Source: an archaeon (lineage in GTDB: Archaea > Asgardarchaeota > Thorarchaeia > Thorarchaeales > Thorarchaeaceae). From it: 64,000 nt of DNA. Shown here piece by piece: positions 10,105-29,226 of this stretch. The stretch covers positions 1-64,000 of the forward strand of contig JAJRWI010000077.1 in the NCBI GenBank assembly GCA_024276825.1. The letters run 5' to 3'. Made by a program: the position numbers and the translations under genes. The notes under the pieces were generated by a model. It worked only from the letters and a program-made list of their open reading frames with translations. It made no database searches and was not told the origin of the DNA. Every line of letters begins with the position of its first letter. The first letter of the stretch is position 1.

Positions 10105-13100
10105 ATGAAGCGGGTGGCAAAGCTATCTGTTTTCATCGCACTGACTGTTCTCTTCTTGATTCCATTATCAGGAAATAACACAGTAGCCATTGATACGACC
10201 TTAAATCAAAACAACAATTTCCGGATATATGACGGTGTAACATCAGTAGCGGGCACTCAGGATTTAGCATCTTGGTGGAATTCAAGTTTTATTTATCGGC
10301 GATATTTCAATTTCACAGAACCCAATATAGTGGACCGCACATTGACTCCCGTCCATCCGTTCTTGACTTTTGAGAGTGGGCATTGTTATCGCGACTCGCT
10401 CAGAGTGCTATATTACTCGAATCCCAATTGGATCTCAGTGCCCTTCACTTTATGGAACACTACATATGATGCATCAGGAAACTATATTCTCTCCACAAGA
10501 ATCAGCTTCAAGGTAAATGTGAGTAAGGGTACCACTGAAATGAATTATTATATCTACTACTCAAAGACCTCTATGGGTTCAGTGAGTTATCCAGATTTCT
10601 ATCCATTCGTGTATCGCAGCTACACCTACTCTATGTTGAATCTGATATCATATTATGATAATAACAATTATGTTGTCAAGATGTGGGACACCTCTAATAA
10701 TGTGTGGGATGATCCAAGAAACATCGACACTCAATGGGCATCAGCAACTGGTATCATTCAGTCTGGTGTTGTCACAAATGACCCCACAGGCACTCTAAAT
10801 AGATATCAGGTTGTAAGAATTGAACCAAATGTTGATACATATATCAACACAGCGTTCTTGGGCTTCTATCAGATTGAATCGAATTATCCTTTGGCAGTCA
10901 CAGCAGGAAGTGGTCATAAGAATAGCAACCCTGCTGTTAACGACTGGTATCCAAATGTCAATGAGCTGAGTGATGGCCTTGGAACCAAATTCCTCATTGG
11001 AGGCGTTTCAGGGTTTGATAGCTACTATGAGGGCAAGTATTGGATACAGGCGCACAGCGACAACACTGAAGTATGGGTTTGGACTGTTTCCGAGTCCCTT
11101 GATAGCGGCTGGGTCTTTTACAACAACACTGCAGTCACATCATGGCCTGCAAAACTCTCTGCAGGCGAATATATATCTAAAAGAGATGTGACCTACCAGA
11201 CAGTGTATATGGTCAACTCGACTAAGCCAGTATCCGTCCGAAGCGGAGATGTAGATGCTGCTTATTCGCGTGATGTTATGGGTCCTTATCCATCATTGAC
11301 AGGTTCTCTGGTTGATGAGGAGTTCTATGCAATTGGCATGGGCAATACGGGAGACCGTATCCGTGTCACAAATGTTGGTTCAGATTCTGCTACAATCTCG
11401 GTCTATAGAAATACTGGCTCTGGTTGGACACTAGAAACAAGTCAAATAATAGCCGCTGATGGTTATTATGATATAGCGCCCGGTACTGCCAGTGATACAG
11501 ATCCTGAGGACTTGCTGCATATTGTGGGCACATCTAATGCCAAATTAATGGTAGAAGGTGTTTACAGTCCTACAAGTGCGACCGATTATGGCGATTGGGT
11601 CCCAACAACAAATGGATACCGCTTTGGAACAGACTTCAAACTGTGGGGATTCAGTCAAATGAAGTTCTTCATCTATGCCTGTGAGAATGCACAGGTCTCA
11701 ATCACGGGTGCAAACAGTGGCACTCTTGACATTCCCGCGGGTGGAGCTGATTTCTTTCTACCACTATCATCATCTCCCTCGTTATACACTATCTCATCCA
11801 ATACAACAATCAGCGTGACCAGGGTTGCACGGTTCTATACAAGTGCACCTTATGCCCCATATGGTGACCAGGGCTATGGCTGGATGGTTCCTGCCTATGT
11901 GCCAGATCAGGATGAATATGGGGTCTCTCATATTATCGGAATTGAAAAGCACCTATTCGAGTTTGACATAACCGTTGTCGATCTCGATGGCGAGCCCGTT
12001 CAAGGAGCGTCAGTCAGTATCCATTTCACAAATGGCACACTATGGGTGGACGAGCAGGGCAGGACCAGAACCGGCACAACCGATAGTTCGGGAATGATAG
12101 TCTTTGAGGGTCTCTCGAACCAAACCTATCAGATAAGAACTGGCATCAATGCTGCTTCATGGCTGACCACCTCTGAAACCTACATATGGGTCAATGATAC
12201 CTCAAATCATGCCATAACCTCCTCAGTAACACCAGTTCAGATCACTCTGGATATGGCATCGATTTACATTCACTTGAGTGATTTAGATGGAGTTTCTATG
12301 GATGACACTCCTGATGAAGATGTATTCATGAGGCTCTGCACTGGGGTTGACTTCAACCAATATGTCCATCAGGCTCAAGCCAATGGCACTGGCTGGCTGG
12401 TCTTTCCACGCGTTCCTCAGAACGATTATAACTTGTATGCAAAATACGCTGGTGCTAATGGTTACAATCTGTTTGGATATGAGGTCATTCGAAGGTACGC
12501 CAACTGGACAATCTCTGCCAGTGAGTTTAGTGCAGGATCTATTGTACATAATAATTGGGAATTCCCACTGACCTCTCTTCAGATTCATGTGTACAGCTGG
12601 GACGGAAAGAATGTTCCTAATGCACATGTGGAAATAAACAACACTGCTAATGGTGTGGATTATATTTACATCCTCACAGAAGTGACAAATGGTAGTGGTT
12701 ATGTCACATTCAACAGGATAGTAAATGGCACTTGGAATGTCAATACTTGGAGATATGATGACTTTGGTCAAAAGACTTGGAATAACAGTCAAGTCCTGTC
12801 AAATGTTCAGAGCTTCACCTCTACAGAGATCAATTTACGTCTCACAAGTTTAATTGTTCGTGTAATGACTGGTGGTAATCCCGTTGAAGGCGCAACCGTA
12901 GACCTACTCATTGATAATTCCACATTGCTGGCCACTGGTCAGACAAATGCAAGTGGACACATAACATTTCAATGGATTCGGGGCAATATGACCAGCCCAC
13001 TCAATTATCGCTATTCGGTTAACGTGACAAAGGGCAACTCTTTGAATTGGACTTGGGTGGATGCTGACTACAGCTTAACAACAAACATACTTATACTTCC

Positions 13101-16100
13101 TGAACCGCAATACTCGCAAACATATACTGAACTGTCCTCGACCTCAGGATTTGAGGATGCATTCTGGTATAATAATTTCACATTCTTAATAGAGTATTAC
13201 AACTATACCTCTACACTTGCGACTCCCGAAATGAAAAATATCTCATATGATTTGAGTAGCATATTGACGGTTTCAATTTACACATACGATGGCACCACGT
13301 TAATTGGACAATTCTCATGGACATTAACAACTACTACTTATATTGAGCAGTATCCATCACCGAATCAACGGAAATTCAATGTGACTATTGATCTAGCATA
13401 TTGGAAGCTCAATGCAAGTGGTAACCCGTACAAGGTCATCATCACGGCACATACGGATGGATACGATGATCCCAATGATTTTGTCATATATCTAACAGTA
13501 CATAATGCTCAGACCGCCTTCGGGTCTGACACTGCATTAGCCTTCACAGAACCCTACAGGATGAATGAGGATCATCTCTTCTGGCTTGAAGACTTGTCTA
13601 ATGCGGACTTGGGCAATATCACCGCATTGGATGTCTATTCATATGAGATCTATTCTGGAGGTCTACTCATCCGTTCTGGCAATCTTGTGAACAACACAGA
13701 TGGAACCTTCACACTCCCATCGTCAGCCTTGAATGGCCTGACAGTTGGAAGTTATATTGTTTCAATTAATCTTGATGCATTGAACTATGAGGCAGCTGAA
13801 CAAGGCTTCACACTCACAATTGTGGAAGCCCCCATGAAAATAGCCAACATTGTTGCTCCTGACTACAACTGGGCACCATTACTTGGCACTATTAGTTTTG
13901 AATACCTGCTTAATAATAACAACACTAGTCCAGATCTCGCTGGTGTGAGTTTAACTGTTCGCTGGATCAATCCTACAACCAGCGAAATCGTTGTCACACA
14001 GGAGTTGACTATTAGTCCATTTAGCAGCATATACTATTACAACTTCTCACGAAATATAGTGCCCAGCGGCACATGGGATGTGAATATCACCTGTTCAAAG
14101 TCCAATTATGCAACTGCCACAGCTCTGTATAGTGGAATTGTTGTATCCAATGCTCCTACAACATTAACAGTTGTAGGTAGCAACTCCATCACTGTAGACT
14201 GGGGCGAGTCTGCAGAATTTGAGGTGTATTATGAACGCGTTGAGGACTCTGCATTTTTGGCCTCTGCATCAAGCAGTCATAATTGGACTATATCATCAGT
14301 GCTAATTCGAGATTTGGGTAATGGCCATTACACTATCAGTGTTGAAACCGATATTGAATCAGGAACTTATGCATTGGACCTAACTCTAAGCTACAATAAC
14401 CATGAGAGCAAGTCAATTCTGCTGACAGTTATTGTTCGTGTCCCATTACAGATTGTATCGGAATATAGTTCTGCAGAGAATCCATTGGAAACATACTGGA
14501 CACACAACTTTACTATTGACGTCATAGTATACGACATATCACGAACAAACGTAACTGTTGACGGTGCTGATTTAACATATCAGTGGTATATGCAATATGT
14601 AGTAGATCAAAGTGGTACTCTGACAAACAACGGCAATGGATCATATTCGGTCACTCTCAATGCATATGATGCCCTGCCTTTGAGTCAATTGTATACTGTG
14701 ACAATATCTGCAACCATGGCTGGTTCCACATCATCAAGCATTACTATCTTTGTGCGTATCAACTCCGTACCAAATGAGATAGTCCTAGAACAGAGTTTCT
14801 TTGAGGTATATTATGCAGATGTGTTTGATGTACGATTCTATTGGAACAACACCTTGGATAACCAACCAATAACTTCTGCAGATTCAACAACTTACTATCT
14901 TGCATCACTTGGTACTTATATCACAACAGGTGTAAATGAGGGCGAAGGCTGGTATCACTTTACAGTTGACACCCGGGCTCTGGAAATGAATACTGATGGG
15001 GCAGCAGTTTATGTGATTCAAATAACTCATGCAAAAGATGGATACGCGCCACATGATATCACAACAGTCATCATTCTCGTCAGAGAGACCGATGCATCAC
15101 TTGTAGTGGACCCGATTGACAATGTCAACTGGTCAGACAGCTTCACAATCACCGCAAGTCTATATGATGACAGGCATGGTGACCTAATCTGGATTGGTGC
15201 ACAGGTGACCGTTTCATATGGCACATATTCAGCTGTGATGACCAACAATCTGGATGGCACTTTCACAGTGGCAATAGACTCAGATGCTTGGTTTGCAGCA
15301 TCAGCCATTCCATATAACCTGACATTCACCTATACTATCCCGAATTATGTTGATAGCACCAACTCATCATCAGTCATCATCGACCCGATTCCTGGTGTCA
15401 TAAACAAGGATCCGACAACTGATGATCCAATAGTGGTGATTTGGGGTGATATGGTGACTGTGCGTGTGAGTGTCAATAACATCTATGGTGGTGGAAACAC
15501 GCCGATAGATGACACAGCAGTCTACTATCTATGGAGTGGTTATGATACACTCCATCCAATGACCTTCTTGCCAAGCACCCATGACTACTATGTTGAGTTC
15601 AACTCTAGTGAAGTTCCCTCAGGAAGCTATAACTTGATTGTACGTGTGATCAATGAGAACTTTACGATTCCAGATCTTCTAATCTCCGCAACCGTCAATC
15701 CAGTCAGCACAACTCTGATTGGTGATGTGAACTCCATAGTAGCGATTGTTGGTGTAGACCAGACTGCACGAGTCGTGCTCACATACTCAATGGTTGGTGG
15801 TACACCGCTATCAGGTGCAACAGTCTACTATGACTGGGCTGGACTAACAAGAAATGGAATTCCAAGTGATGGGAACTATGTATGCGACTTTAATCCAAGT
15901 GAAACCACACTTGATGTTCCCGGAGTCTATGTCTTGACCTTCCATGCCGAGCTTCAGAACTATACAGCACAGACCTATAATGTGTCTCTCCATTTGATTG
16001 CACAGACAGAGATTCAGGTCGAGAATCAAGTACTTCAGTCTGACCAGATTCTACGCCTGCACTTCAAGTATTATGATTTGACTAATGATCGCGAGGTGCC

Positions 16101-17280
16101 TGTATCAGCCATCATCAGTCTTACTTTGATTCTCCCGGATGGCAGCACAATGCCTGTAAACCTTGACAACCATGATACAAATGGATACTTTGTAGACATT
16201 GCAGCCACTGCAATTGGTGAAGAGAGCACAGATGCATATCCACTTTACATAATTGCCTTGGCAACTGGCTATCAGAATCACACTCAGACTGAATATCCCG
16301 AGAGCTTCACTGTTCTCATCATCGAACCTCAGATTGAGATTCCAGTACTTTCCAACTTCATTGGTCCCATTCCAAAGTCTTGGTTGATACTGGCAGGTGG
16401 AATCAGCTTCATATTTCTCATTGGAATTGCTGGAGCAGTGGCCATACGCCGCATGAGGATTCCATACCAGATAAAGCAGATCAACAAGGCTCTAAAGGCA
16501 ATTGAGAACCAGAAGCGGGCAGAGGTAGAAGGAATCAAGAGCATGGGTCAGGTGATTGCAGAGCTGCTGGCTCCTGGTCTAGCAGAATTGAATCTACCTG
16601 CCCCAGTGATTGAGGTTGGTCCATCTGAAATATACGAGGAAGTCCTTGATGAGGAGACCGAGGGTCTGCTTGATGAACTAGATGCCCTCGAAGACATTGG
16701 CGAGGCAGAAGGAGCTCCTGAAGAGCCTATTGATTATGAGGCCGAACTTCAGGCTGAACTCGAGGCAGTGGAAGTTCCTGAGGAACCAACTGAGATTAAG
16801 CCAGAGGTTGAGGAAGCGGCAGAAGAGCCAGAGGTGGAAGAGCCCACTGAAGAGGTTGAAGCTGAACCTGAACCTGAGCCTGAAGCAGAGGTTGAAGCTG
16901 AGGCTGAAGAGAAACCCGAACCAGAGGCCAAAGCTGAAGCTGAATTGGAAGGTGAAGAAGCCCCTGTCGAACCTGCCATTGAACCAGAAGCTGAAGAGAG
17001 TGAAGACACAACTACTGAGGAACCTGACTCATTGGAAGAGGAACCAGTTTCTGAAGACTCCGAAGCAGACTCTGAAGAGCCAACTGACGAATCGTTTGAA
17101 GAAGATATGGCCGAGTCGACCGAGTCAACTGATATTGGCGAGTCACTCTCAAAGGAGGAGATCATTGAGCGTTTGCCACCAGAAATCAAGGAATCCATGA
17201 GTGTGGAGGAGTTGAAAGCGCTCACAAAGGAGGAACTCCTTGCCCTTCTCAAGTCACCTAAACAGGGAGGTGAGGAGTGA
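10105..17280 (+). CDS. Giant (2391 aa) single-pass surface glycoprotein A
   Basis: Signal peptide; WWNSSFIYRR DUF2341-like start; prealbumin/Cna-B-like repeats (VVDLDGEPVQGASV, GTTDSSG); Ig-like repeats (DLGNGHY, NNGNGSY); many N-x-S/T sequons; one C-terminal TM followed by an E/P-rich tail. Confidence 0.88.
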   Translation: MKRVAKLSVFIALTVLFLIPLSGNNTVAIDTTLNQNNNFRIYDGVTSVAGTQDLASWWNSSFIYRRYFNFTEPNIVDRTLTPVHPFLTFESGHCYRDSLRVLYYSNPNWISVPFTLWNTTYDASGNYILSTRISFKVNVSKGTTEMNYYIYYSKTSMGSVSYPDFYPFVYRSYTYSMLNLISYYDNNNYVVKMWDTSNNVWDDPRNIDTQWASATGIIQSGVVTNDPTGTLNRYQVVRIEPNVDTYINTAFLGFYQIESNYPLAVTAGSGHKNSNPAVNDWYPNVNELSDGLGTKFLIGGVSGFDSYYEGKYWIQAHSDNTEVWVWTVSESLDSGWVFYNNTAVTSWPAKLSAGEYISKRDVTYQTVYMVNSTKPVSVRSGDVDAAYSRDVMGPYPSLTGSLVDEEFYAIGMGNTGDRIRVTNVGSDSATISVYRNTGSGWTLETSQIIAADGYYDIAPGTASDTDPEDLLHIVGTSNAKLMVEGVYSPTSATDYGDWVPTTNGYRFGTDFKLWGFSQMKFFIYACENAQVSITGANSGTLDIPAGGADFFLPLSSSPSLYTISSNTTISVTRVARFYTSAPYAPYGDQGYGWMVPAYVPDQDEYGVSHIIGIEKHLFEFDITVVDLDGEPVQGASVSIHFTNGTLWVDEQGRTRTGTTDSSGMIVFEGLSNQTYQIRTGINAASWLTTSETYIWVNDTSNHAITSSVTPVQITLDMASIYIHLSDLDGVSMDDTPDEDVFMRLCTGVDFNQYVHQAQANGTGWLVFPRVPQNDYNLYAKYAGANGYNLFGYEVIRRYANWTISASEFSAGSIVHNNWEFPLTSLQIHVYSWDGKNVPNAHVEINNTANGVDYIYILTEVTNGSGYVTFNRIVNGTWNVNTWRYDDFGQKTWNNSQVLSNVQSFTSTEINLRLTSLIVRVMTGGNPVEGATVDLLIDNSTLLATGQTNASGHITFQWIRGNMTSPLNYRYSVNVTKGNSLNWTWVDADYSLTTNILILPEPQYSQTYTELSSTSGFEDAFWYNNFTFLIEYYNYTSTLATPEMKNISYDLSSILTVSIYTYDGTTLIGQFSWTLTTTTYIEQYPSPNQRKFNVTIDLAYWKLNASGNPYKVIITAHTDGYDDPNDFVIYLTVHNAQTAFGSDTALAFTEPYRMNEDHLFWLEDLSNADLGNITALDVYSYEIYSGGLLIRSGNLVNNTDGTFTLPSSALNGLTVGSYIVSINLDALNYEAAEQGFTLTIVEAPMKIANIVAPDYNWAPLLGTISFEYLLNNNNTSPDLAGVSLTVRWINPTTSEIVVTQELTISPFSSIYYYNFSRNIVPSGTWDVNITCSKSNYATATALYSGIVVSNAPTTLTVVGSNSITVDWGESAEFEVYYERVEDSAFLASASSSHNWTISSVLIRDLGNGHYTISVETDIESGTYALDLTLSYNNHESKSILLTVIVRVPLQIVSEYSSAENPLETYWTHNFTIDVIVYDISRTNVTVDGADLTYQWYMQYVVDQSGTLTNNGNGSYSVTLNAYDALPLSQLYTVTISATMAGSTSSSITIFVRINSVPNEIVLEQSFFEVYYADVFDVRFYWNNTLDNQPITSADSTTYYLASLGTYITTGVNEGEGWYHFTVDTRALEMNTDGAAVYVIQITHAKDGYAPHDITTVIILVRETDASLVVDPIDNVNWSDSFTITASLYDDRHGDLIWIGAQVTVSYGTYSAVMTNNLDGTFTVAIDSDAWFAASAIPYNLTFTYTIPNYVDSTNSSSVIIDPIPGVINKDPTTDDPIVVIWGDMVTVRVSVNNIYGGGNTPIDDTAVYYLWSGYDTLHPMTFLPSTHDYYVEFNSSEVPSGSYNLIVRVINENFTIPDLLISATVNPVSTTLIGDVNSIVAIVGVDQTARVVLTYSMVGGTPLSGATVYYDWAGLTRNGIPSDGNYVCDFNPSETTLDVPGVYVLTFHAELQNYTAQTYNVSLHLIAQTEIQVENQVLQSDQILRLHFKYYDLTNDREVPVSAIISLTLILPDGSTMPVNLDNHDTNGYFVDIAATAIGEESTDAYPLYIIALATGYQNHTQTEYPESFTVLIIEPQIEIPVLSNFIGPIPKSWLILAGGISFIFLIGIAGAVAIRRMRIPYQIKQINKALKAIENQKRAEVEGIKSMGQVIAELLAPGLAELNLPAPVIEVGPSEIYEEVLDEETEGLLDELDALEDIGEAEGAPEEPIDYEAELQAELEAVEVPEEPTEIKPEVEEAAEEPEVEEPTEEVEAEPEPEPEAEVEAEAEEKPEPEAKAEAELEGEEAPVEPAIEPEAEESEDTTTEEPDSLEEEPVSEDSEADSEEPTDESFEEDMAESTESTDIGESLSKEEIIERLPPEIKESMSVEELKALTKEELLALLKSPKQGGEE

Positions 17281-17322
17281 ACAGGCTCACTCTTATCCCC
17301 ATTTTCTTATGGAGGCAATGAT

Positions 17323-20300
17323 ATGCTAACGATGCGGAGAAAGATACTACTTCTGTCATTTGTTCTCGTTTTCTTGTTGATTCCAGGATCCAACAATGCT
17401 ATCTTTGATACAGTCAGACAAGACCTTGCAGTGACGAATCACTCCACAATATCAGCAGATATTGAGGAGTCGACGCCTTGGTGGAACACAACATTCCATT
17501 ATAGAATGCATGTAAATCTCACCGACACGAACTCTACCACTCGTGTTGATGTTCCTACTCACGTGTGGCTGACCTTTGAGAACAATACCTGTTACAAGTA
17601 TTCCATCCGTGTTGTTGACAGTAACAATGTCGAGGTCCCATCTCAAGTATACAACTACACATATTGGGAAAACCCCAACTATGTGAAGAGTGCCACAGTC
17701 TTCTGGTACGCCAATATCAGCGCTGACAGCACTTCAGTCTACTGGGTCTATTTTTCAGAACTAACAACAATTGAACAGACAAACTATGACTCAGTCGTCT
17801 GGTTTGCTCGAACTACGGGGGCTCTCTCTGGAAAGTTCGATGTAAATTATTGGAGCTTTCGTGGGGAGTGGTACAATGTCACCATGTACAATGCAGCCGG
17901 TGGAAAGATCACTAATGGTGCCCACAAGAAGGCTGATGGAACTTGGGACTGGAACTGGGGCACCAATCGTGGAAGCATGCACTGGAATCCTGATGGTCTT
18001 GGAGGGCAGGCGACCTCTGCAACTCCTCCCATCTCAGGCACAACTTTTGTAAACATCAATGGTCCCCTCTTCATTAATTATACTACCCAGCTTCCATTTG
18101 GATCTTATGCAAAATTGAATGTGACCTATACATTCTATAAATGGGGCTGGATCACTAGAATATACATCAAATACACTGCTTCTACTGGTGGTTCAGGGCG
18201 TACTGATGAATGGGTGTTCTACCCTTACTTGACTATTGAGGGAATTGAGGTGGCCCCTGATGGAACCCAGACCTATTACAGTAACTGGGCCCCAAGTTCA
18301 AACAAGGGTTTACCTGCAGGCTTTGGCTGGTGGAACAACAACGGCATTTCTCATGGCACTGTCAGAATCTTGCATGAGGCCTACAACATGCCAGCAGGTC
18401 ATGAGGATGACTTCAATAACTACTATTACAGATGGTGGGATACAAGCTCATATGAATTCTGGGACACATATCATCCAAGTGTGACTGTTCAGGCAGGTAC
18501 TGTTCTTAAGGAAGAATGTGCTTTTGCAGTCTGGAACGGTGCAGAGGGCGAGGATGGCTACATGAGAGTGTTCAACGCCACTTCCCGATATCTGCCCATA
18601 TTTCGAGAAATAAGCAATGTGTCATCCTATTCATTCAGAATCAATGTGAAGGATCTTGGTGGAAACAATATCGAGGGAGCAAATGTCACGCTTCTCAATC
18701 CCATTACTGGTGCAAGACTGTACAAGCCAACTGGTGCACCCTATACCGATCTCACGGACTCAGATGGAAACGTCACCTTCATTGGTCTTCTCAATCAGAC
18801 ATACCGAATCGATGTCTGGATTGATACAACAACATGGCTTACTCCTGAAGCTGGTGCTACAGGAATGAACGTGACCTGGAGCGGCACAGCTGTGGCCGAT
18901 GGCCCATTTACACCAGTTTCAATCACGTTGGACCTCGCATCAATCACAATTCATCTGGATGATCTCGCTGGTGACCCCTTGGGCACAGTTGGCGCAGAAA
19001 CAGTCAAAGTCTGGATATACAATGCCAGCGATCCTTCAAGGGCGAACTGGAAGTACATGGACTATGAGACCACAGACTCATCTGGCGATCTCACATTCTA
19101 TAGACTGCCTAAATGCGATTGGTTGTTCAACTTCACCTATAGCAACACCGATACTGGTCATATATACACAAAAGCGGACTTTGGTCTTTACGTGTCGCAT
19201 AACATTGATGAGAGTCTGATAACTGATGATCTCACACGAAGCTGGGTGCTACCTCTCACAACCATTGACTTCTATGTGGAGGCTTATGATGGACAACCTG
19301 TAGAGAATACATATGTCAGAATCTCAAAAGCAGGCACAGCAGATCCCATAGCAACAGGAGTTACGGACTCCTATAACATCACCCATATGACAGATGCCAA
19401 TGGAAATGTCACCTTCTACCGAGTACTAAAGGGCAACTGGACAGTCGTTGTCTACAGAACTGATGACTATGGCCAGACTGCTTACAATACAAGTGAATAT
19501 GTCTATGACACAACAGGTTATGCTTACAAGAAGATATCTATTCCTCTAACTTGGCTACGAATACGAGTTGTGGACAATAATAACAACCGAGTAACTGGCG
19601 CAAAGATCGATCTCTATGCTAATGGCGTTTTTCTTGTGACTGCCTATTCAGACAGTGCGGGTGAGTACAATTTTCATTGGATCAAAGCCAATGATACTTC
19701 AATTGGATGGAGTTATACTGTTACTATTAGTAAGAACACAGCCCAAACTAGTGATTCGGTTTATGCTTCATATGACTATCTCCATTGGAACACTATTACA
19801 TTAACACCACCTGCTTATACTCAGAAATATACCGAACTCAACTGCACAGCCTCCGTATATTCATGGTATTATGCAGATAATGGGACATTCCAAATTGGCT
19901 GGTTCAATCGTACCAGCACAAGCCCATCAACGTGGGAAGACCAATCTTTGAATCAATCTGAGTACTTTGCAGGAACCATGAATTTCACAATATCTCATAA
20001 TGGTGTTGTGATTGGGTTCGGTGTGTGGAATTCTACCCACCATCTATATATCTCGCATTATACATCCGATGGGATATATTTCACAATTGCAATTGATACA
20101 TTACTTTTCAAAATGAATGCGAGCAATATACCCTATATTATAACAATAAAGGCTGAAACTCCCAATTATGATGCTCCTGAAGAATATACTGTGACCGTTG
20201 TTATCTCAGTGGCAAGTACTACTAGAAATGGAGCCACTTCATTGGAGGCATATTACCTTGATGGCTTTGCTGCATTATATTCATTGACAACAAATCCCTC

Positions 20301-23300
20301 TGGACGCGACGCTCTCAATCTGACTGATCTCGACTTTACGAACTATACAATTTATGACTCCGATAACAATATTATTTCAACAGGCAATCTCACCCATCTT
20401 GGCTCCGGCATCTATCGGTTCTCGGACTCCAACCTCAATACATCAGATGTTGGAAGCTATGAGATTGTAATCTGGCTTCATAAACTGAACTATATGAACC
20501 ATACTTTCACTTTAACAGTCACAATCAATGCAGTGCTAACTGAACTTGTCTGGACCACCGACCCATCTGATTATACTTGGGGCACAGGAATAAGTTTTGT
20601 AACCCTTGAGTTTCGAGATACTGTTCATGGGGGAACGATATCTGGTGTGTCAGTGACGTATTCATGGATAGACGTTTCATCAGGGACAACTGTTCTCGTA
20701 GAGTCATCAAGTTCTCTGACATACTTGTATGCAAACAATATTGTTGCAAATGGCACATATCGAATCTATGCCTATGCCACCAAACAAAATTATCTCGCTG
20801 CTGATAGTACATCTGTTTCTTTTCTGGTTTCTCCCGCAAGTACAAGCATCTCGCTGAAATCATCCGACACAATAACTATTGAATGGGGCAGCGAATATGC
20901 AGAGTTTGACTTTGACTATGTTCAGGCACCTTTCACCGTAGCGGGCGCCTCTGTGATTAATATTGATTGGACTGGAGAATACAGTCTTGTTGATTATGAC
21001 AATGGAACTTACACATTGAGAATGCTTGCAGTTCAAGAAGCAGCAAACTATACAGTCACTTTCACGATGTGGATAGAAAATCGTACCAAGGCCTCAGAGA
21101 CCGTATATGTCAATGTGCTGATCCCATTGGATGTTTCATCATCTGAAGGGAAATCACTACAAGACCCAATTCAGGAGTACTGGACACGTTCATTCATGCT
21201 ACAAGTAATCGCTGGAGATCAATCCAATCAATCAGAATATGTTTCTGGAGTAATTGTCACTTACAACTTTCCAGCGGGTGGTATCTCTGGAACTTTCACA
21301 GAGAACGCCACTGGTCAATACTATTGGCTGGAGTTTCCAGCATCACTTGCTCCTGGTCCTGGAGTGTACGAGATTCAAGTGGAAGCAGCAAGAATTGGGT
21401 GCACAGGAACTTCTCTGTCAATTTACATTGAAGTTCTTCCAACTCCAACAAGGATAACCGCTCAGAATCAATTATTGACAGTCTACTATGCAGACTCTTA
21501 CCTACTCAATTTCAGCTGGTCAACAACTATTGATACTCCTGTTGGCATTGAAGGGCCAGATAATGTGCACATTGAACTATGGAAGAGCACGAGTCTTGTC
21601 AATGGAAGTATTGCTGGTATTGTTGAGCTGGGCAATGGTGACTATCAATTCTTGATGGACACACGAATGCTTGGAATGACCGCAGACTCTCCTCTATTTC
21701 CAACTAGTTATTACTTTGTCATCACAATGAACAAACTTGGATACGAGGAGCCTCTTGCCGTCACAATAATCATTCTTGTCTTGCAGACTCCTACAGAGAT
21801 GACAGCAGATCCAATAGAGCCAGTCATCTGGTCGGAAGATTTCACAGTCAGAGTTCACATTCGCGATATAGTTCACAATGAGTATGTCTGGACTGATGCT
21901 TCAGTATACTTCATTTATGAGGACATTAATGTTACAATGACCTCTCTTGGTAATGGGACATTTGTACTGACTGGCGATTCTGCTGACTATTTCTCATCGT
22001 CAGACTTGCCTCACTCAGTTACTATCATCTATACATTACCAAACTACGTTGATGGACAGATTCAGGTGGAAGTGCAGATCAATCCAAAACCTGCCTATAT
22101 TCTTAATCTACCGCTAGATGATACTTATGACTGGACTGACACAATCGATCTTACTCTGGATATTATTATCAATGGCACAACCACAAGACTTGAGGTTGAC
22201 AGTTGCTACTTCTATTGGAAAGAGTACCCTGCAATAAATGGAACACTCGCATATGATTCAATATTCAACAGATATCTTGGTACGGTGAACACAAAACTAG
22301 TTCCAGCAGGTAACCTGACACTTGTGCTTGCAGCAGTCAAGGGCAACTACACAATTCCTGAGATTGAAATCTCACTGGAAATTAAGCCATTGCCTGCCAA
22401 GCTTAATTCAGTATCTGGTGATCTGCTAACTGTGATATATGGTCTTGATCAGTCAGCTCAGATTATTATGGCATATACACACGGAGACAATGATACTGTT
22501 CTGGAAGGTGCGAGAATCACCTTCATTTGGAATGGCCTTGAGCGTGAGGCTCTGTGGAGTGATGGTCAATACATCTTCGAGTTTAATCCATCATCTGACA
22601 CTTCACTTGAAGTTCCTGGTACTCTGGAACTTGTGTTTACTGCAGCACTTCAGAACTACACAACTGAAACTACCACAGTTCTAATGAGACTCGCTGCAAG
22701 AACCGAAATTGTTGGCGGTCCCTATCGAGTCGAGTCTGAACAATATCTCAATCTTATCTTCAAGTATTGGGATGTTGTCAATGACAGACCCGTTGGGTCT
22801 GCAGCCACGGTTCAATACCAGATTGGAAACAACACCCCTGTCACGGTGACTGCAGAGCAGTTTGATGGAACTCAGTACATAATTCGTATACTTGCCGATG
22901 ACATCGGTGAAGTGAGCCCCGATCCCTATCAGATCCGGATATTTGCAAGCGCACCTGGCTATCAGAATTGGACCGTATTGGATGATCCTCAATACATCAC
23001 AGTCTATGTAGACCCACCTACTGTCCAAATACCATTAATAGGCCTATCAATTGAGAGGTCTACGCTGTTTTTGGTTGGCGGAGTCAGTCTGCTGTTCATT
23101 CTTGGTATACTAGGTGCAATCGCAGTTCAACGCATGCGTATACCTTACCAGATTAAGCAGATTAACAAAGCACTGAAAGCTATTGAGAATGACAAGAAGG
23201 CCCGTGTTGAGGGCATCAAATCCATGGGCACTATCATCTGGGAGCTTCTTGAGCCTGGTCTAGCCACACTCAATATCACCCCTGATGTTCTTGGCGCAAT

Positions 23301-23880
23301 CTTGGAAGCTCCCGTAGAAGAAGAGATTGCACTTGAAACTGAGGAACTCCTTGATGAGCTTGAGGCGCTTGAAGATATTGAGGCCGAACCAACTCGGGAA
23401 GATGCTGCTTATGAGGAAGAATTGGTCGCCGAACTGGAAGAAGCAGTTGAAACCGCCGCGCAACCCGTAGAAGTCACAGGGCTGGTGGAAGAGCAGCCCG
23501 AAACCGGAAAGGCAGAGTTGATGCCAGAGGCTGAAGAAGAAACAACAGAAGAATCGGGGCCTGAAGAGGAACTCGAAGAAGATGAAGAAACTGACACTGG
23601 AGAACCTATTACCGAACCAGAACCCCCAGCTGATGAAGAGCCTAGCATGCCAGATGAAGAACCCATTGAAGATCTAAAGGACGACACAATCGAGCCTGAC
23701 ATGGACGAAACTGAAGAGTCAGCGGGAAACATCGACCGGCCAGAAGAAGATGAATCTGTTGAATCCAATGATGAGGCGCCTGAGCCAGAATCGCAACTAG
23801 ATGAAGCCCCCTCTGATGACTCTGATGAATCATCTGGATCAACTGATCTTGTTGATGGAAATGGTGAAGGTGATGAATGA
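17323..23880 (+). CDS. Giant (2185 aa) single-pass surface glycoprotein B, paralog of A
   Basis: Same domain order as 10105-17280 (WWNTTFHYR; VKDLGGNNIEGANV; LGNGDY; TM; acidic tail); GGAGG RBS. Confidence 0.88.
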   Translation: MLTMRRKILLLSFVLVFLLIPGSNNAIFDTVRQDLAVTNHSTISADIEESTPWWNTTFHYRMHVNLTDTNSTTRVDVPTHVWLTFENNTCYKYSIRVVDSNNVEVPSQVYNYTYWENPNYVKSATVFWYANISADSTSVYWVYFSELTTIEQTNYDSVVWFARTTGALSGKFDVNYWSFRGEWYNVTMYNAAGGKITNGAHKKADGTWDWNWGTNRGSMHWNPDGLGGQATSATPPISGTTFVNINGPLFINYTTQLPFGSYAKLNVTYTFYKWGWITRIYIKYTASTGGSGRTDEWVFYPYLTIEGIEVAPDGTQTYYSNWAPSSNKGLPAGFGWWNNNGISHGTVRILHEAYNMPAGHEDDFNNYYYRWWDTSSYEFWDTYHPSVTVQAGTVLKEECAFAVWNGAEGEDGYMRVFNATSRYLPIFREISNVSSYSFRINVKDLGGNNIEGANVTLLNPITGARLYKPTGAPYTDLTDSDGNVTFIGLLNQTYRIDVWIDTTTWLTPEAGATGMNVTWSGTAVADGPFTPVSITLDLASITIHLDDLAGDPLGTVGAETVKVWIYNASDPSRANWKYMDYETTDSSGDLTFYRLPKCDWLFNFTYSNTDTGHIYTKADFGLYVSHNIDESLITDDLTRSWVLPLTTIDFYVEAYDGQPVENTYVRISKAGTADPIATGVTDSYNITHMTDANGNVTFYRVLKGNWTVVVYRTDDYGQTAYNTSEYVYDTTGYAYKKISIPLTWLRIRVVDNNNNRVTGAKIDLYANGVFLVTAYSDSAGEYNFHWIKANDTSIGWSYTVTISKNTAQTSDSVYASYDYLHWNTITLTPPAYTQKYTELNCTASVYSWYYADNGTFQIGWFNRTSTSPSTWEDQSLNQSEYFAGTMNFTISHNGVVIGFGVWNSTHHLYISHYTSDGIYFTIAIDTLLFKMNASNIPYIITIKAETPNYDAPEEYTVTVVISVASTTRNGATSLEAYYLDGFAALYSLTTNPSGRDALNLTDLDFTNYTIYDSDNNIISTGNLTHLGSGIYRFSDSNLNTSDVGSYEIVIWLHKLNYMNHTFTLTVTINAVLTELVWTTDPSDYTWGTGISFVTLEFRDTVHGGTISGVSVTYSWIDVSSGTTVLVESSSSLTYLYANNIVANGTYRIYAYATKQNYLAADSTSVSFLVSPASTSISLKSSDTITIEWGSEYAEFDFDYVQAPFTVAGASVINIDWTGEYSLVDYDNGTYTLRMLAVQEAANYTVTFTMWIENRTKASETVYVNVLIPLDVSSSEGKSLQDPIQEYWTRSFMLQVIAGDQSNQSEYVSGVIVTYNFPAGGISGTFTENATGQYYWLEFPASLAPGPGVYEIQVEAARIGCTGTSLSIYIEVLPTPTRITAQNQLLTVYYADSYLLNFSWSTTIDTPVGIEGPDNVHIELWKSTSLVNGSIAGIVELGNGDYQFLMDTRMLGMTADSPLFPTSYYFVITMNKLGYEEPLAVTIIILVLQTPTEMTADPIEPVIWSEDFTVRVHIRDIVHNEYVWTDASVYFIYEDINVTMTSLGNGTFVLTGDSADYFSSSDLPHSVTIIYTLPNYVDGQIQVEVQINPKPAYILNLPLDDTYDWTDTIDLTLDIIINGTTTRLEVDSCYFYWKEYPAINGTLAYDSIFNRYLGTVNTKLVPAGNLTLVLAAVKGNYTIPEIEISLEIKPLPAKLNSVSGDLLTVIYGLDQSAQIIMAYTHGDNDTVLEGARITFIWNGLEREALWSDGQYIFEFNPSSDTSLEVPGTLELVFTAALQNYTTETTTVLMRLAARTEIVGGPYRVESEQYLNLIFKYWDVVNDRPVGSAATVQYQIGNNTPVTVTAEQFDGTQYIIRILADDIGEVSPDPYQIRIFASAPGYQNWTVLDDPQYITVYVDPPTVQIPLIGLSIERSTLFLVGGVSLLFILGILGAIAVQRMRIPYQIKQINKALKAIENDKKARVEGIKSMGTIIWELLEPGLATLNITPDVLGAILEAPVEEEIALETEELLDELEALEDIEAEPTREDAAYEEELVAELEEAVETAAQPVEVTGLVEEQPETGKAELMPEAEEETTEESGPEEELEEDEETDTGEPITEPEPPADEEPSMPDEEPIEDLKDDTIEPDMDETEESAGNIDRPEEDESVESNDEAPEPESQLDEAPSDDSDESSGSTDLVDGNGEGDE

Positions 23881-23999: not shown

Positions 24000-24881
24000 A
24001 TGATTAGAGAGATTCATGTCTTTAAGGATGGCGAGACTCTGTTCGAGGATGTCATTGTGCCCAACAAAGACCTAGACACAAAAGCAGTAATGATGCTTGT
24101 TTCCTCATCCTGCAAGAAACTGCAAGAGTGGAAAATTGACAGCATGGAGATTGAACGCTTTCGATATGTATACATGAACAGTCATGATACACAATTCATC
24201 ATCACTATGGACCGCCAGGCCTCATTAATGAAGGTTCACGAGGCAATGACATCTGCTGTATCAAAATTCATGACTGCCTTTGAGAGTGTTCTGGAAACTG
24301 ATGAATGGAAATCAACTGACTTTTCACCCTTCAAGGATGGCTTTAGAAGGATTGTCAGTAGGATTCCAGTGAAAGTCTGTCTTGCAGGTCATGGTGGTAC
24401 CGGTAAAACAACTCTTCTTGAGCTTGCCACAATGCCATCGCAAGGGCCACCTCAAGAGTATGTGCCAACTTTCTTTGGCGATAAGGCTCTATTAAAGGCA
24501 GACTTTGATCCATATGTGTTCAGCATGTTTGACCTTGGTGGCCAAGACCGTTTCGTACAAGAATGGGGCAAGATAATTCGGGCTGGTTCTCTTGTTGTGA
24601 TTGTGACAGACTCTACTACTGAGAACTTGGCATGGACCAAGAGAGTCGCTTACCCCGTTCTAAAGAACGAGTTACCTTATGCACGGGCAATAGCAATAGC
24701 AAACAAGCAGGATCTTCCTGGAGCTCTATCGCCTCAAGAGGTGAGCAGGAAGCTGGGAGTACCGGCGTACGGCATGCAGGCAAATAAGATGGACTTTAGA
24801 GATCGATGGTTGAAACTGCTAAGAGGGTTGGCTTTTGAAACCCTTGATTTTGCAGTAGTAGGAGAAATAGAGGTGGAATAA
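24000..24881 (+). CDS. Longin-domain / Arf-like small GTPase fusion
   Basis: G1 GHGGTGKTT, G2 YVPT, G3 DLGGQ, G4 NKQDLP; the N-terminal ~120 aa has a longin-like beta-beta-alpha-beta-beta-beta-alpha pattern. Confidence 0.88.
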   Translation: MIREIHVFKDGETLFEDVIVPNKDLDTKAVMMLVSSSCKKLQEWKIDSMEIERFRYVYMNSHDTQFIITMDRQASLMKVHEAMTSAVSKFMTAFESVLETDEWKSTDFSPFKDGFRRIVSRIPVKVCLAGHGGTGKTTLLELATMPSQGPPQEYVPTFFGDKALLKADFDPYVFSMFDLGGQDRFVQEWGKIIRAGSLVVIVTDSTTENLAWTKRVAYPVLKNELPYARAIAIANKQDLPGALSPQEVSRKLGVPAYGMQANKMDFRDRWLKLLRGLAFETLDFAVVGEIEVE

Positions 24882-24882
24882 G

Positions 24883-25443
24883 ATGTCAGATCCAAGTGAA
24901 ACCACAAAGAGTATACTTAGTGAGGAGGAGCGAAAGAGACTCATCACTGAAATTGGGAATATAAAGAATATTCTTGATAGCTTCAAATATGGCCTGAACT
25001 TCGAGCAATTCGCTGATGCTTTGTTCAAGACCATTGACCGCCAGACACTGGCAATCAACAAGCTAGAGGCGCAGATGAGAGAGATCATTGAGAGAATGAA
25101 GAATCTTGAGAAACGATTCGATGAAGGTATTAGAGTCACAGTTTCTGGAGCTGTGAGTGCCGAAGGTGGTATTGAACCAACAGAAGTGATAATTGGCGAC
25201 AAGGCAGAAGAAAAGGCAAAAGAAGAACCAACTACTCCTCCTGATATTGAAGTCATCAAAAAAGAGATAGAAGAGCTGAAAATCAAAATTGCCAAGCTGT
25301 TCGAGAAGGAGAATGAACTCACTGAGATGGCCATGAATGACCCGGCAGCAGCCGATGAGTATGAAGAGAAAGCAAGAGTTGCTCGTGAAATGAGAGTTGA
25401 ACTGGAGGCCAAGAAAAAAGAATTGGAGGACAAACTGCAATAG
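24883..25443 (+). CDS. Coiled-coil hypothetical protein
   Basis: Two E/K-rich heptad segments joined by a short linker; GAGGTG RBS. Confidence 0.8.
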   Translation: MSDPSETTKSILSEEERKRLITEIGNIKNILDSFKYGLNFEQFADALFKTIDRQTLAINKLEAQMREIIERMKNLEKRFDEGIRVTVSGAVSAEGGIEPTEVIIGDKAEEKAKEEPTTPPDIEVIKKEIEELKIKIAKLFEKENELTEMAMNDPAAADEYEEKARVAREMRVELEAKKKELEDKLQ

Positions 25444-25458
25444 CAATTGAGGTGATCA

Positions 25459-25806
25459 ATGAAAATGGGAATTTTCGATAAATGGAGAAGGAAGAAGCAC
25501 AGAGCTGAAATGAGTGGTACTAAAGTGCCTGCACCACGACCAATTTCTGCAAGGGAAATGAGTTCTGAAGTGCAGGCGGAGATAGTCAGTCTTGTTGCTG
25601 AATATGAGCAATTGTACAAGCGACGATCAGAACTTCAAGCTGAAAGAAGCGAATTGACTGAGCGCCTGGACCGCGGTGAATTGACCGCAATTGAATTCAG
25701 GAAACTTCTGATGGAGAAGATTCAGGAAGCCGCACAAGTGGCAGAGAGCTTAAAAGCAACAGCTGCTCGGTTGACAGAACTCGGCTATCGTGGAGTACTT
25801 CGCTGA
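25459..25806 (+). CDS. Small helical-hairpin/coiled-coil protein (steadiness-box-like motif)
   Basis: Heptads flanking LDRGELTAIEFRK; GAGGTGA RBS. Confidence 0.75.
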   Translation: MKMGIFDKWRRKKHRAEMSGTKVPAPRPISAREMSSEVQAEIVSLVAEYEQLYKRRSELQAERSELTERLDRGELTAIEFRKLLMEKIQEAAQVAESLKATAARLTELGYRGVLR

Positions 25807-25807
25807 G

Positions 25808-27196
25808 GTGGGAACGCTGTCCAGGCGTGAAGATGAAGAACCCGAGACCCCCTCTGATATTGAGGAAAGGACTCGTCAGCTAATGGAGAAAGCATTAGGC
25901 ACCTCTGAATCGACAGATGTGCATGATGAAGGAGCCCCATTAGCACCAAGCACATCTCTCGCGGGACAGATATCTGAAACTTTTTTCAGGATTCAGATTC
26001 GCATGGAAGATCTCATCTCATCGATTGAAGACTCGATTAGGTCTATAGAACCTGAGATCAACGAGTCCCTAAAGAGCACGATTGAATCCATTTCTGAGCG
26101 GTTAAGGCGTGAGGCAGGTCTTGGTGTGTTCACAAGCAAGACAGTGAAAATTGTAAGAGAAGAGCTGGAAAAGGCCCTCTCCGTAGAGGCAGTTCATAAG
26201 GGCCTATTTGCTGCTCTTGCTGAAAGCCGTGAACAGGTGCGTGACATAATTCAAAAAACCAGCCGCGGTTCAATTCGTGAAATTGACAGACGCATTAGCA
26301 CATTACAATCGAAAATTGTTCATGTTTATGCCAGACTGAACGAGCGAGAGCAAGAGATTGACAAGTTAAGATCAACAATAACCGAGCTTCGCAGCAAGAT
26401 TTCCGAGATGAATGACATAATCGCACGTAAGGACAAAGAGATGGCTGAATATGTTAAACGACTTGACTCATTATTAGCAACCAGAGACCAATTGGCTGCA
26501 AAACTTGTCGAACAAGACTCCACCATATCCTCATTAACTGGACAGCTCAAGCAAGCAAGCTCTGAGATATTGCAATTGAAGACAATGATTGAGAAGATGG
26601 ACTCTGCTGAGGAGCTTGTTGTCGAATATGAAAACATGACAAAGACACTATCTGAATTGCAGGGACGCTTGGCTGAACTTCAGGAAACCCTCAAGCAGAA
26701 AGACATGACTATTGACGAGCTAAGCGAAACAATTAAGGAGTTCAATGCCGAGAGATCTGAACTTCAGTCACGTGTGCAAGAATTGGATGAAGAGGTCTCA
26801 CAGCTTCGTGGTGCCAAAGAGGGCTTGCTGTTAGAGATCGAAACCCTCAGGCGAAAGATTGCTGAACTTCAGGCACGTTGGGAACTATTATATCAAGTGG
26901 CTGAGGAAAGCCCTGCTTTCAGAGCATATTTTGTGGTCGCTGATAAGGAACACTGGTTTCCCCTATCTCACCTGTCTTCAGCACTGGGCATTCCTGTTGT
27001 GCGACTGAAACAACAATTAGAACGATTCATAGAAGTTGGTCTCTTAGAGATTGATGGCGACCGCATCCGCCCGAAAAAGCTCACTGAGGTTGTCAAAGAG
27101 GTCTTGGACCAGGATGAAAGGGTCCTTTCAGAGGCGAGGGGGGACTTGGGCATGGGGGATGACACCAATAATGAACAATCAGACAACGATACATGA
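25808..27196 (+). CDS. Long coiled-coil protein with C-terminal winged-helix-like domain (start uncertain, 25790-25817)
   Basis: About 200 aa of continuous heptads, no Walker motifs; C-terminal LSHLSSALGIPVVRLKQQLERFIEVGLLEI wHTH-like segment. Confidence 0.8.
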   Translation: MGTLSRREDEEPETPSDIEERTRQLMEKALGTSESTDVHDEGAPLAPSTSLAGQISETFFRIQIRMEDLISSIEDSIRSIEPEINESLKSTIESISERLRREAGLGVFTSKTVKIVREELEKALSVEAVHKGLFAALAESREQVRDIIQKTSRGSIREIDRRISTLQSKIVHVYARLNEREQEIDKLRSTITELRSKISEMNDIIARKDKEMAEYVKRLDSLLATRDQLAAKLVEQDSTISSLTGQLKQASSEILQLKTMIEKMDSAEELVVEYENMTKTLSELQGRLAELQETLKQKDMTIDELSETIKEFNAERSELQSRVQELDEEVSQLRGAKEGLLLEIETLRRKIAELQARWELLYQVAEESPAFRAYFVVADKEHWFPLSHLSSALGIPVVRLKQQLERFIEVGLLEIDGDRIRPKKLTEVVKEVLDQDERVLSEARGDLGMGDDTNNEQSDNDT

Positions 27197-27221
27197 ATAA
27201 CTAACTGGTAGGTGCATTGAA

Positions 27222-27563
27222 TTGGCAAGATCACTTGACGAAGTAATGAGGTTCCTAGAAAACTATACACTGGCTTGGCATCATTGGCTAATGATTCTAG
27301 CTTTGTTGAAATTGGGGGGTGCAGCGACCAAGGCGCAGATCTTCCCGGTGTACAAGAAGGAGGGCTTTTCTCCTCATGCAATTGAGGATGTGTTTCGCAG
27401 AGATTTGATAGAGCTTGGCGAAGCAATAGATATTGATGGCGACATAGACACTCTTCAAGACTCAACAATGATTTATCTTAGTGATAATCCCAAGTTTCAA
27501 CGGTTCATAAAGAAACATCTGAAGTCGGTGGTCCGAACTCTAAAGATGCAGAGACCGAACTGA
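27222..27563 (+). CDS. Small hypothetical protein, possible winged helix
   Basis: 113-aa ORF, TTG start after a GGTG RBS, last gene of the co-oriented cluster. Confidence 0.7.
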   Translation: MARSLDEVMRFLENYTLAWHHWLMILALLKLGGAATKAQIFPVYKKEGFSPHAIEDVFRRDLIELGEAIDIDGDIDTLQDSTMIYLSDNPKFQRFIKKHLKSVVRTLKMQRPN

Positions 27564-29195: not shown

Positions 29196-29201
29196 AGGGT
29201 G

Positions 29202-29225
29202 ATGAGGAGGAAACTCCCTCCTCAT
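29202..29225. terminator. Hairpin between convergent genes
   Basis: ATGAGGAGG-AAACTC-CCTCCTCAT, a 9-bp perfect stem followed by a T-run. Confidence 0.6.
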
Positions 29226-29226
29226 T

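Follow-up and report, generated by a model that had tools for sequence, protein, structure and literature searches.

A conserved juxtamembrane module of giant Thorarchaeota surface proteins and its predicted docking on a longin/winged-helix protein

Why should two giant surface proteins that have diverged along most of their length keep the same twenty residues, letter for letter, at the inner face of the membrane? In this work we address this question for giants A and B, two paralogous glycoproteins encoded side by side in a window of 64,000 nucleotides (the whole stretch of DNA analysed, positions 1 to 64,000 of contig JAJRWI010000077.1, assembly GCA_024276825.1) from an archaeon of the Thorarchaeaceae. 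Our results show that these residues belong to a tail module that is a strongly constrained domain, new to the literature, which marks one family of Thorarchaeota giant type-I surface glycoproteins. We propose that the module docks the longin/winged-helix protein wHTH410, encoded immediately in front of giant A; the contact itself is predicted by modelling, and we would put the probability of this reading at roughly 0.58. The argument turns on the following features.

8923..10104, plus strand: wHTH410, a 393-amino-acid protein with a longin domain and two winged helices and a Pfam HTH_20 match; the proposed docking partner
10105..17280, plus strand: giant A, a type-I surface glycoprotein of 2,391 amino acids with a signal peptide, 46 N-glycosylation sequons and one C-terminal membrane helix
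17323..23880, plus strand: giant B, a paralog of A with 2,185 amino acids, a signal peptide, 53 N-glycosylation sequons and one C-terminal membrane helix
16375..16446, plus strand: membrane helix of giant A, from a hydropathy scan, 48% identical to the helix of B
23056..23127, plus strand: membrane helix of giant B, from a hydropathy scan
16447..16590, plus strand: juxtamembrane module of giant A (residues 2115-2162), made of helix 1 (the 20-mer, 16450-16509), a connector and helix 2 (IKSMGQVIAELLAPGLAEL)
23128..23271, plus strand: juxtamembrane module of giant B (residues 1936-1983), with the 20-mer at 23131-23190

The juxtamembrane module and its distribution

The 20-mer RMRIPYQIKQINKALKAIEN is encoded both in giant A (16450-16509, residues 2116-2135) and in giant B (23131-23190, residues 1937-1956), in each case directly after the membrane helix, and in both proteins it is continued by the motifs VEGIKSMG..I.ELL.PGLA and ETE.LLDEL.ALEDI, all of which a sequence-only reading of the window had reported correctly. 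No identical run elsewhere in the full A/B alignment is as long as the 20-mer: it exceeds the next one (the 8 residues VEGIKSMG, in the same module) by a factor of 2.5, and all the rest have 5 residues or fewer. Identity between the paralogs falls from 0.75 over the juxtamembrane part (53 residues) to 0.48 for the membrane helix, 0.33 for the stalk and 0.29 for the heads. The ectodomains, which the same reading took to align only patchily, are instead collinear, with 33% identity across 1,591 aligned residues and strong divergence only in the N-terminal heads; a family search finds Ig-like, CarboxypepD_reg and bMG3 matches in them.

The module comprises about 48 residues and starts at the inner membrane face, with the 20-mer as its first helix. 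When the tail is modelled alone with AlphaFold2, residues 7-20 and 33-47 form two helices separated by a 12-residue connector (21-32), with a predicted local distance difference test score (pLDDT) of 86-93, and a weaker acidic helix follows at residues 69-84. Helix 1 is amphipathic, with a heptad-like hydrophobic stripe and a hydrophobic moment of 0.56. Both A and B carry the helix 1 signature [RK].[RK].P[YFH].IKQI[NDE].A directly after a single C-terminal membrane helix, then the second-helix signature ..MG.[VI]I.ELL.PGLA.L and an acidic LL.EL.AL, and both are found in a locus where a type-I surface protein of more than 2,000 amino acids adjoins a wHTH410 ortholog. Residues P6, I9, K10, Q11, I12, A15 and L16 of helix 1 are invariant among 13 tails, and P[YFH].IKQIN and L.PGL.EL are kept even in the most distant members.

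Of 1.84 billion cluster representatives, a profile of the 96-residue tail retrieves no more than 23 at E<=1e-3, and all matches whose source is named in the protein database are from Thorarchaeota. Among genomes of the same family, 28 of 36 match at E<=1e-3, and a strong match (E<1e-25) is found in 24 genomes including this one, mostly in open frames of 2,000-2,500 amino acids where the contig is complete; in their own genome the tails of A and B score 9.8e-44 and 1.2e-38 with the profile hidden Markov model. Searches of both tails against Pfam (E<=1) and NCBIfam returned no family, the tail profile had no match below E 0.1 among PDB sequences, and the best ESM Atlas feature score (0.82) was within noise. 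Against solved folds the tail model had no match (Foldseek best E 0.28; VIA-align best Z 3.0, root-mean-square deviation (rmsd) 5.8, 46 aligned), the unit being too small for fold assignment. A literature search found no description of tails of this kind.

Predicted docking on wHTH410 and its rivals

The AlphaFold2 model of wHTH410 (pLDDT 86) has a longin fold in residues 1-139, which is closest to the Lokiarchaeota longin 8yqg_B (Z 11.0, rmsd 3.5, 129 aligned), GATOR1 8fw5_B (Z 10.6, rmsd 2.9, 122 aligned) and the SEA complex 8adl_S (Z 10.5); the Foldseek matches of this domain are weak (E 7e-3 to 9e-3). Two winged helices follow, in residues 149-217 and 260-346, the second of them ArsR-type (Z 9.2). 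The family is present in 134 of the 201 Asgard genomes sampled and is probably the 'NPRL2-like longin' family, which has been described from most Thor metagenome-assembled genomes with no link to surface proteins or tails (Liu et al., bioRxiv 10.1101/2020.10.19.343400).

A three-chain complex was modelled from wHTH410, the 96-residue tail of A as partner, and ArfL, the Arf-like small GTPase encoded downstream of giant B. It reached an interaction prediction score from aligned errors (ipSAE) of 0.81 (runs 0.80, 0.82 and 0.81), against 0.00 for the best of 3 controls, with a contact agreement between runs of at least 62% and a partner pLDDT of at least 61. The confident contacts join tail residues 6-48, which are the conserved module, to wHTH410 residues 160, 215-266 and 344-382. 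ArfL has no residue in confident contact with the tail in this model, and swapping wHTH410 while ArfL was kept gave a score of 0.00. The modelled interface takes in 15 of the 20 invariant tail residues, the five outside it being R4, Y7, K10, K17 and A46. On the other side of the contact, the wHTH410 patch VYEW..YNSA.LELKH is invariant in the 13 family f1 orthologs whose giant is A-type or whose locus is tandem; single positions vary in two B-type-linked copies and in G037, a genome of another family.

Gene order around the giants bears on the same question. Behind giant B lie two further features:

24000..24881, plus strand: ArfL (ArfL293), an Arf-like small GTPase with a 120-residue N-terminal extension and a Pfam Arf match in residues 124-255
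24883..27563, plus strand: cc186, cc115, cc468 and p113, coiled-coil and small proteins, tightly packed behind the GTPase

The complete row reads thiolase, wHTH410, giant A, giant B, ArfL, cc186, cc115, cc468, p113, with 0 nucleotides (nt) from the wHTH410 stop to the giant A start, 42 nt between A and B, 119 nt between B and ArfL, and from there 1 to 25 nt plus one overlap of 17 nt. The row recurs in at least 14 related genomes, and in 14 related loci ArfL is the first gene behind the giant or the giant pair. In every arrangement seen wHTH410 abuts a giant: in family f1 it is upstream at a spacing of 0-4 nt, in genome G021 a copy precedes each of two giants, and in G037 and on the metagenomic contig of P0030 the giant comes first and wHTH410 second (with a 2-nt gap on the P0030 contig), with no GTPase genes nearby. 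In nine relatives the locus holds just one giant with the tail, which is A-type in eight and B-type in one, and several of these genomes give one strong tail match in all. A clasp between A and B is therefore unlikely to be the conserved function, and the heterodimerisation role that the sequence-only reading had offered as an alternative to docking was rejected in that form.

Natural deletions are found in the genus g3 (L055, G019:C83; L056, G028:C38; L057, G004:C17), where the locus lacks its giants as well as cc186 and cc468, and ArfL, cc115 and p113 come directly after wHTH410; in G019 and G028 a giant is encoded just upstream of the thiolase, its tail diverged (VP.EIKQIN...LLEPGL). Since cc186 and cc468 are absent exactly where the in-locus giants are, they may serve the giants. 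Across the family, cc186 occurs in 22 of the 24 strong-tail genomes, the tail lying at a contig end in the two exceptions, and is missing from all 13 genomes that lack a strong tail. Because they track the giants, both proteins are candidates for partners of the distal acidic part of the tail.

A further line of evidence comes from another Asgard family, f9, in which genome scans (G150, G167 and G170; loci L051, L052, L053 and L054) identified giants that have the whole longin-wHTH module fused behind the membrane helix. One example is a G150 protein of 2,663 amino acids, with a signal peptide. Its membrane helix spans residues 2190-2215 and its complete longin-wHTH module residues 2298-2656 (E 1e-36), and between these two lies a juxtamembrane helix, YAKIPAFVRKVREMKKSIKKGK, with the f9 pattern IP..V[KR]K.R....I...K. 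In the same locus (L051, C61:18000-34658) a second fused giant stands upstream in tandem, cut by the contig end, and a 633-amino-acid ArfL-like GTPase with a coiled-coil C-terminus is encoded downstream on the same strand. The same fusion is found in two proteins of G167, where neither contig shows an ArfL-like gene, and in G170, where the adjoining ArfL-like gene is on the opposite strand. The fused modules keep the wHTH410 patch as [VI][YF].[WY]..Y....L.L. Proteins of 689-2,000 amino acids in a word-indexed database contained no wHTH410 fusion. Taken together, the split (f1) and fused (f9) forms show that giant, longin-wHTH protein, Arf-like GTPase and coiled coil recur together.

The sequence-only reading had regarded the 20-mer as a docking site for a partner from the same operon, with the products at 8923 and 24000 among the candidates. 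In silico the proposal is supported for the first by the synteny, the f9 fusions and a complex model with clean controls; ArfL made no confident contact in that model. In the complex as modelled, both tail helices would pack by their hydrophobic faces against the helices on either side of the second winged helix of wHTH410. R4, K10 and K17, the conserved basic residues of the tail, are not part of the interface, and that they face the membrane is a guess. Both paralogs would keep the same helix because a single adaptor gene is common to both. As an adaptor, wHTH410 would couple the giant to ArfL and the coiled-coil proteins encoded downstream, a coupling inferred from gene order and fusion only, with any direction of signalling an inference too.

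Several observations weigh against docking on wHTH410. Confidence in the contact comes from a model and not from a measurement, and the calibration of the ipSAE mark, which is reached by 58 of 80 solved complexes and by 2 of 110 mismatched pairs, is only rough here, as it was made on pairs and not on three chains with user-made alignments. Within family f1, the relatives that supply the synteny evidence all have the entire neighbourhood in common, down to the metabolic genes. The f9 juxtamembrane helix escapes the tail profile, and its likeness to the motif is at the level of pattern only. The interface columns of wHTH410 are not conserved above the rest (0.77, against 0.79 overall and 0.72 in the remainder of the C-terminal half), and the patch is intact in G004, a 92% complete assembly in which no strong-tail giant was found. 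Finally, a looser helix 1 ([IV]P..[IVL][KR]..N..[IL]..[IL].KGK) opens the tails of giants on contigs C38 and C8 of the same genome, which have no adjoining wHTH or GTPase gene; part of the motif is thus generic to the superfamily and may serve a general role.

This looser helix also speaks for a module that works by itself, as a structural or oligomerisation element of HAMP-like geometry that pairs into homo-oligomers and transmits or stabilises the position of the membrane helix with no separate partner. Such a role, which is compatible with docking, would suit the layout straight after the membrane helix, where helices of 14 and 15 residues are joined by a connector of 12, all predicted with high pLDDT, and would suit the heptad-like stripe and the hydrophobic moment of helix 1. 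Nevertheless we hold it to be unlikely: neither Pfam nor a PF00672 scan nor hhalign relates the module to HAMP by sequence, what comes after the module is an acidic disordered tail and no output domain, and this reading does not account for a longin-wHTH protein that is strictly adjacent to the giant or fused with it. It is distinctly unlikely, in our judgement, that the module binds some other protein (ArfL, cc186, cc468 or a cytoskeletal protein) while wHTH410 binds elsewhere or is a DNA-binding regulator of the locus. The ArsR-type winged helix would fit a regulator, and cc186 and cc468 accompany the in-locus giants exactly, down to their loss in g3, but ArfL makes no confident contact with the tail, the score collapses on replacing wHTH410 alone, and wHTH410 remains next to the giant even in loci that have no GTPase and coiled-coil genes close by.

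Very improbable, finally, is a chiefly topogenic role, in which a positive-inside amphipathic helix on the inner leaflet would orient a very large exported protein. The RRMR cluster at the membrane boundary, the position of K10 and K17 outside the modelled interface and the amphipathic character of helix 1 agree with it. A positive-inside signal, however, needs charge and not sequence, whereas the module keeps Q, N, I, A, L, P and G positions unchanged from genus to genus; the second, non-basic helix (LLAPGLAEL) is conserved equally, and the pattern is limited to so few proteins. Docking on wHTH410 remains the reading that we favour. Beyond it, one can envisage a receptor-to-GTPase pathway in which the giant would sense contact or ligand, the module would hold the NPRL2-like adaptor at the membrane, and the adaptor would control ArfL and coiled-coil effectors. 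This would be an Asgard forerunner of the coupling of eukaryotic receptors and adhesion proteins to small GTPases, with the fused and split forms as its evolutionary trace, an extension that we advance tentatively and consider rather doubtful as a whole.

Selection and gene conversion in the tail

Eleven of the 20 codons of the 20-mer differ between A and B, through 12 nucleotides and with every change silent, as the sequence-only reading had counted; its explanation was purifying selection on the protein in place of recent gene conversion. Where the two proteins have the same amino acid, we counted the identical codons and set this count against the one expected from a random draw on local codon usage. 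In this genome the 20-mer has 9 identical codons against 8.4±2.0 expected, which is fully randomised, and the 53 codons of the juxtamembrane region have 17 against 15.7±2.9. Since the silent sites are at the random expectation, the identity of the two proteins in this genome reflects purifying selection and not recent conversion.

The family as a whole behaves otherwise. In G021 (C1:1225556-1240773, loci L036/L016) the tails of the two giants differ by 6 nt in 159 counted from the first juxtamembrane codon, and the membrane helices just upstream by 41 in 75; 47 of 51 tail codons are identical (18.9±3.2 expected), compared with only 10 of 25 in the membrane helix. This is a recent gene-conversion tract that begins exactly at the boundary between membrane and juxtamembrane segment. 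Within genomes, juxtamembrane identity between A and B is 0.77 in this genome, 0.96 in G021 and 0.74 in G027, against 0.61 (A-A) and 0.64 (B-B) between genomes. In a tree of tails the A and B labels are no more clustered than when shuffled (6 changes, shuffled mean 5.2), and the supported clades are G021_A+B (94/93) and G027_A+B with G013_A (97/93). A C-terminal motif of the tail, LSK..ELIE.LP..IKE...EL.KLSK.EL..LL, is present or absent in relatives independently of the ectodomain type. Tails thus group by genome and not by ectodomain, which indicates that the tail evolves as a unit exchanged between paralogs. Purifying selection in preference to conversion is therefore borne out for this genome and not family-wide, and in the window itself an old conversion may have been followed by decay at silent sites.

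Could conversion between tandem paralogs account for the identity, with no special function of the segment? Conversion of precisely this segment is visible in G021, and tails cluster by genome there and in G027. The silent sites of this genome nevertheless sit at the random expectation, and the residues of this segment do not vary in single-giant genomes either, so that we find this explanation barely credible.

Likeness to known systems and minor features of the tail

Large glycosylated ectodomains on one membrane helix are also found in integrin beta and the classical cadherins, and there, as is proposed for the present module, a short conserved membrane-proximal segment of the tail recruits a soluble adaptor (talin or kindlin, and p120-catenin, respectively) that reaches GTPase-linked machinery; there too paralogs keep the tail while the ectodomains diverge. 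The differences are clear. The window tails match no Pfam family (E<=1) and lack NPxY and catenin-binding motifs. Their proposed adaptor combines longin and winged-helix domains, they run on behind the module as a polyacidic stretch of about 150-175 residues, and an A/B heterodimer is not the conserved state. On the adaptor side, NPRL2 and NPRL3 of GATOR1 have, like wHTH410, an N-terminal longin followed by winged helices, and wHTH410 is encoded beside a small GTPase; the C-terminal winged helix of wHTH410 differs in being ArsR-like.

In Actinobacteria, the conservon (CvnA-D) consists of a membrane sensor with a histidine-kinase-like ATPase domain, a roadblock protein, a DUF742 protein and a Ras-like GTPase. 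The two systems have in common one operon that combines a membrane protein, a protein of the roadblock/longin superfamily, a winged-helix-like part and a small GTPase, and in the window a longin-fold protein and an Arf-family GTPase do lie within one tightly spaced gene row. The window differs in that its membrane protein is a giant single-pass glycoprotein with Ig-like, CarboxypepD_reg and bMG3 matches only and no kinase-like domain, in that longin and winged helices form one polypeptide, and in that coiled-coil proteins are added.

The HAMP domain (PF00672) resembles the module in its place directly after a membrane helix, its proline start, its order of helix, connector of about 12 residues and helix, and its length of about 45-50 residues. 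It differs in what follows, here a polyacidic tail in place of an output domain. At the sequence level the relation was rejected: there is no Pfam match to the HAMP profile at E<=1, a PF00672 scan of this genome gave 0 matches, and hhalign of the tail against a HAMP alignment from relatives gave a probability of 0.5%, below the reversed-sequence control (3.4%).

Asgard archaea encode many eukaryotic-type small GTPases and longin/roadblock proteins, and to our knowledge almost nothing is known of what these connect to. The proposal made here is a concrete and testable link, in which a 48-residue peptide of a surface protein is predicted to bind a longin/winged-helix protein encoded beside an Arf-like GTPase, and for which the f9 gene fusions are independent support. 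If the contact is true, the peptide, its partner and the mutable residues would be a first handle on whether Asgard GTPase modules are wired to the cell surface, a matter that bears on the origin of receptor-driven control of membrane and cytoskeleton before eukaryotes. If it is not real, the module still stands as an undescribed and strongly constrained domain that marks archaeal surface giants. What is new in this work is the silent-site test, the G021 conversion tract, the natural deletions of g3, the verified fusions, and a controlled complex model that names partner and interface.

Beyond the module, the cytoplasmic tails extend to 276 residues in A and 249 in B, with 35-36% Asp+Glu, and have the following parts.

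16651..16698, plus strand: acidic helix 3 of giant A, ending in ETEGLLDELDALEDIG; its LL.EL.AL motif is conserved across the family, and the modelled helix (69-84) is of low confidence
23335..23379, plus strand: acidic helix 3 of giant B, ETEELLDELEALEDI
16699..17145, plus strand: polyacidic, proline-containing distal tail of giant A, with 41% D+E and 6% K+R past the first 100 tail residues
17146..17256, plus strand: C-terminal motif LSKEEIIERLPPEIKESMSVEELKALTKEELLALLKS of giant A, absent from giant B and variable in relatives irrespective of A or B ectodomain type

Acidic helix 3 has the pattern E-x-x-x-L-L, as ETEGLL and ETEELL in the window and DTEDLL in relatives. This pattern is that of eukaryotic acidic dileucine sorting signals, to which it may correspond or which it may recall by coincidence. 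The C-terminal motif of giant A consists of two similar L[ST]K.E[LI]...L units.

Another tail is shared by three further giants of the same genome (C38:1-12332 and C8:10534-19287), starting with [IV]PK..R..N......KGK[VT]P.P, continuing with a helical region and ending in ..E.A.[ND]L[SP][KR].[DEL][LIV].[AE]L[LI]..LG. These helical tails of about 185 residues resemble the window tails in the pattern at the start, just after the membrane, and in an L[ST]K..L..LL-type C-terminal ending; they differ in the middle, with no LLAPGLAEL helix 2 and no polyacidic stretch, and in a single-genome search they match the tail profile at an E of only about 2e-4. In a relative (L049, G008:C18:11278-18530) an A-type giant is split into overlapping frames of 1,147 and 1,339 amino acids, which represents a frameshift or an assembly error.

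As regards wHTH410, a comparison of its profile with that of ArfL for shared longin signal gave a probability of 1.2%, the alignments being shallow. Two paralogs of wHTH410 are encoded elsewhere in the genome. On C33 (17515-20247) a paralog (17515-18672, E 8.5e-19) is followed by open reading frames (ORFs) of 292 and 205 amino acids, with no adjoining giant; judged from ORF layout, which echoes that of wHTH410, ArfL and a coiled coil, this may be a second, receptor-less copy of the module. On the minus strand of C81 (16537-30281) a paralog (29142-30281, E 8.6e-34) lies a few genes from two same-strand neighbours, a P-loop ORF of 233 amino acids (GPFESGKST) that resembles a small GTPase and a signal-peptide protein of 1,275 amino acids with a short basic tail.

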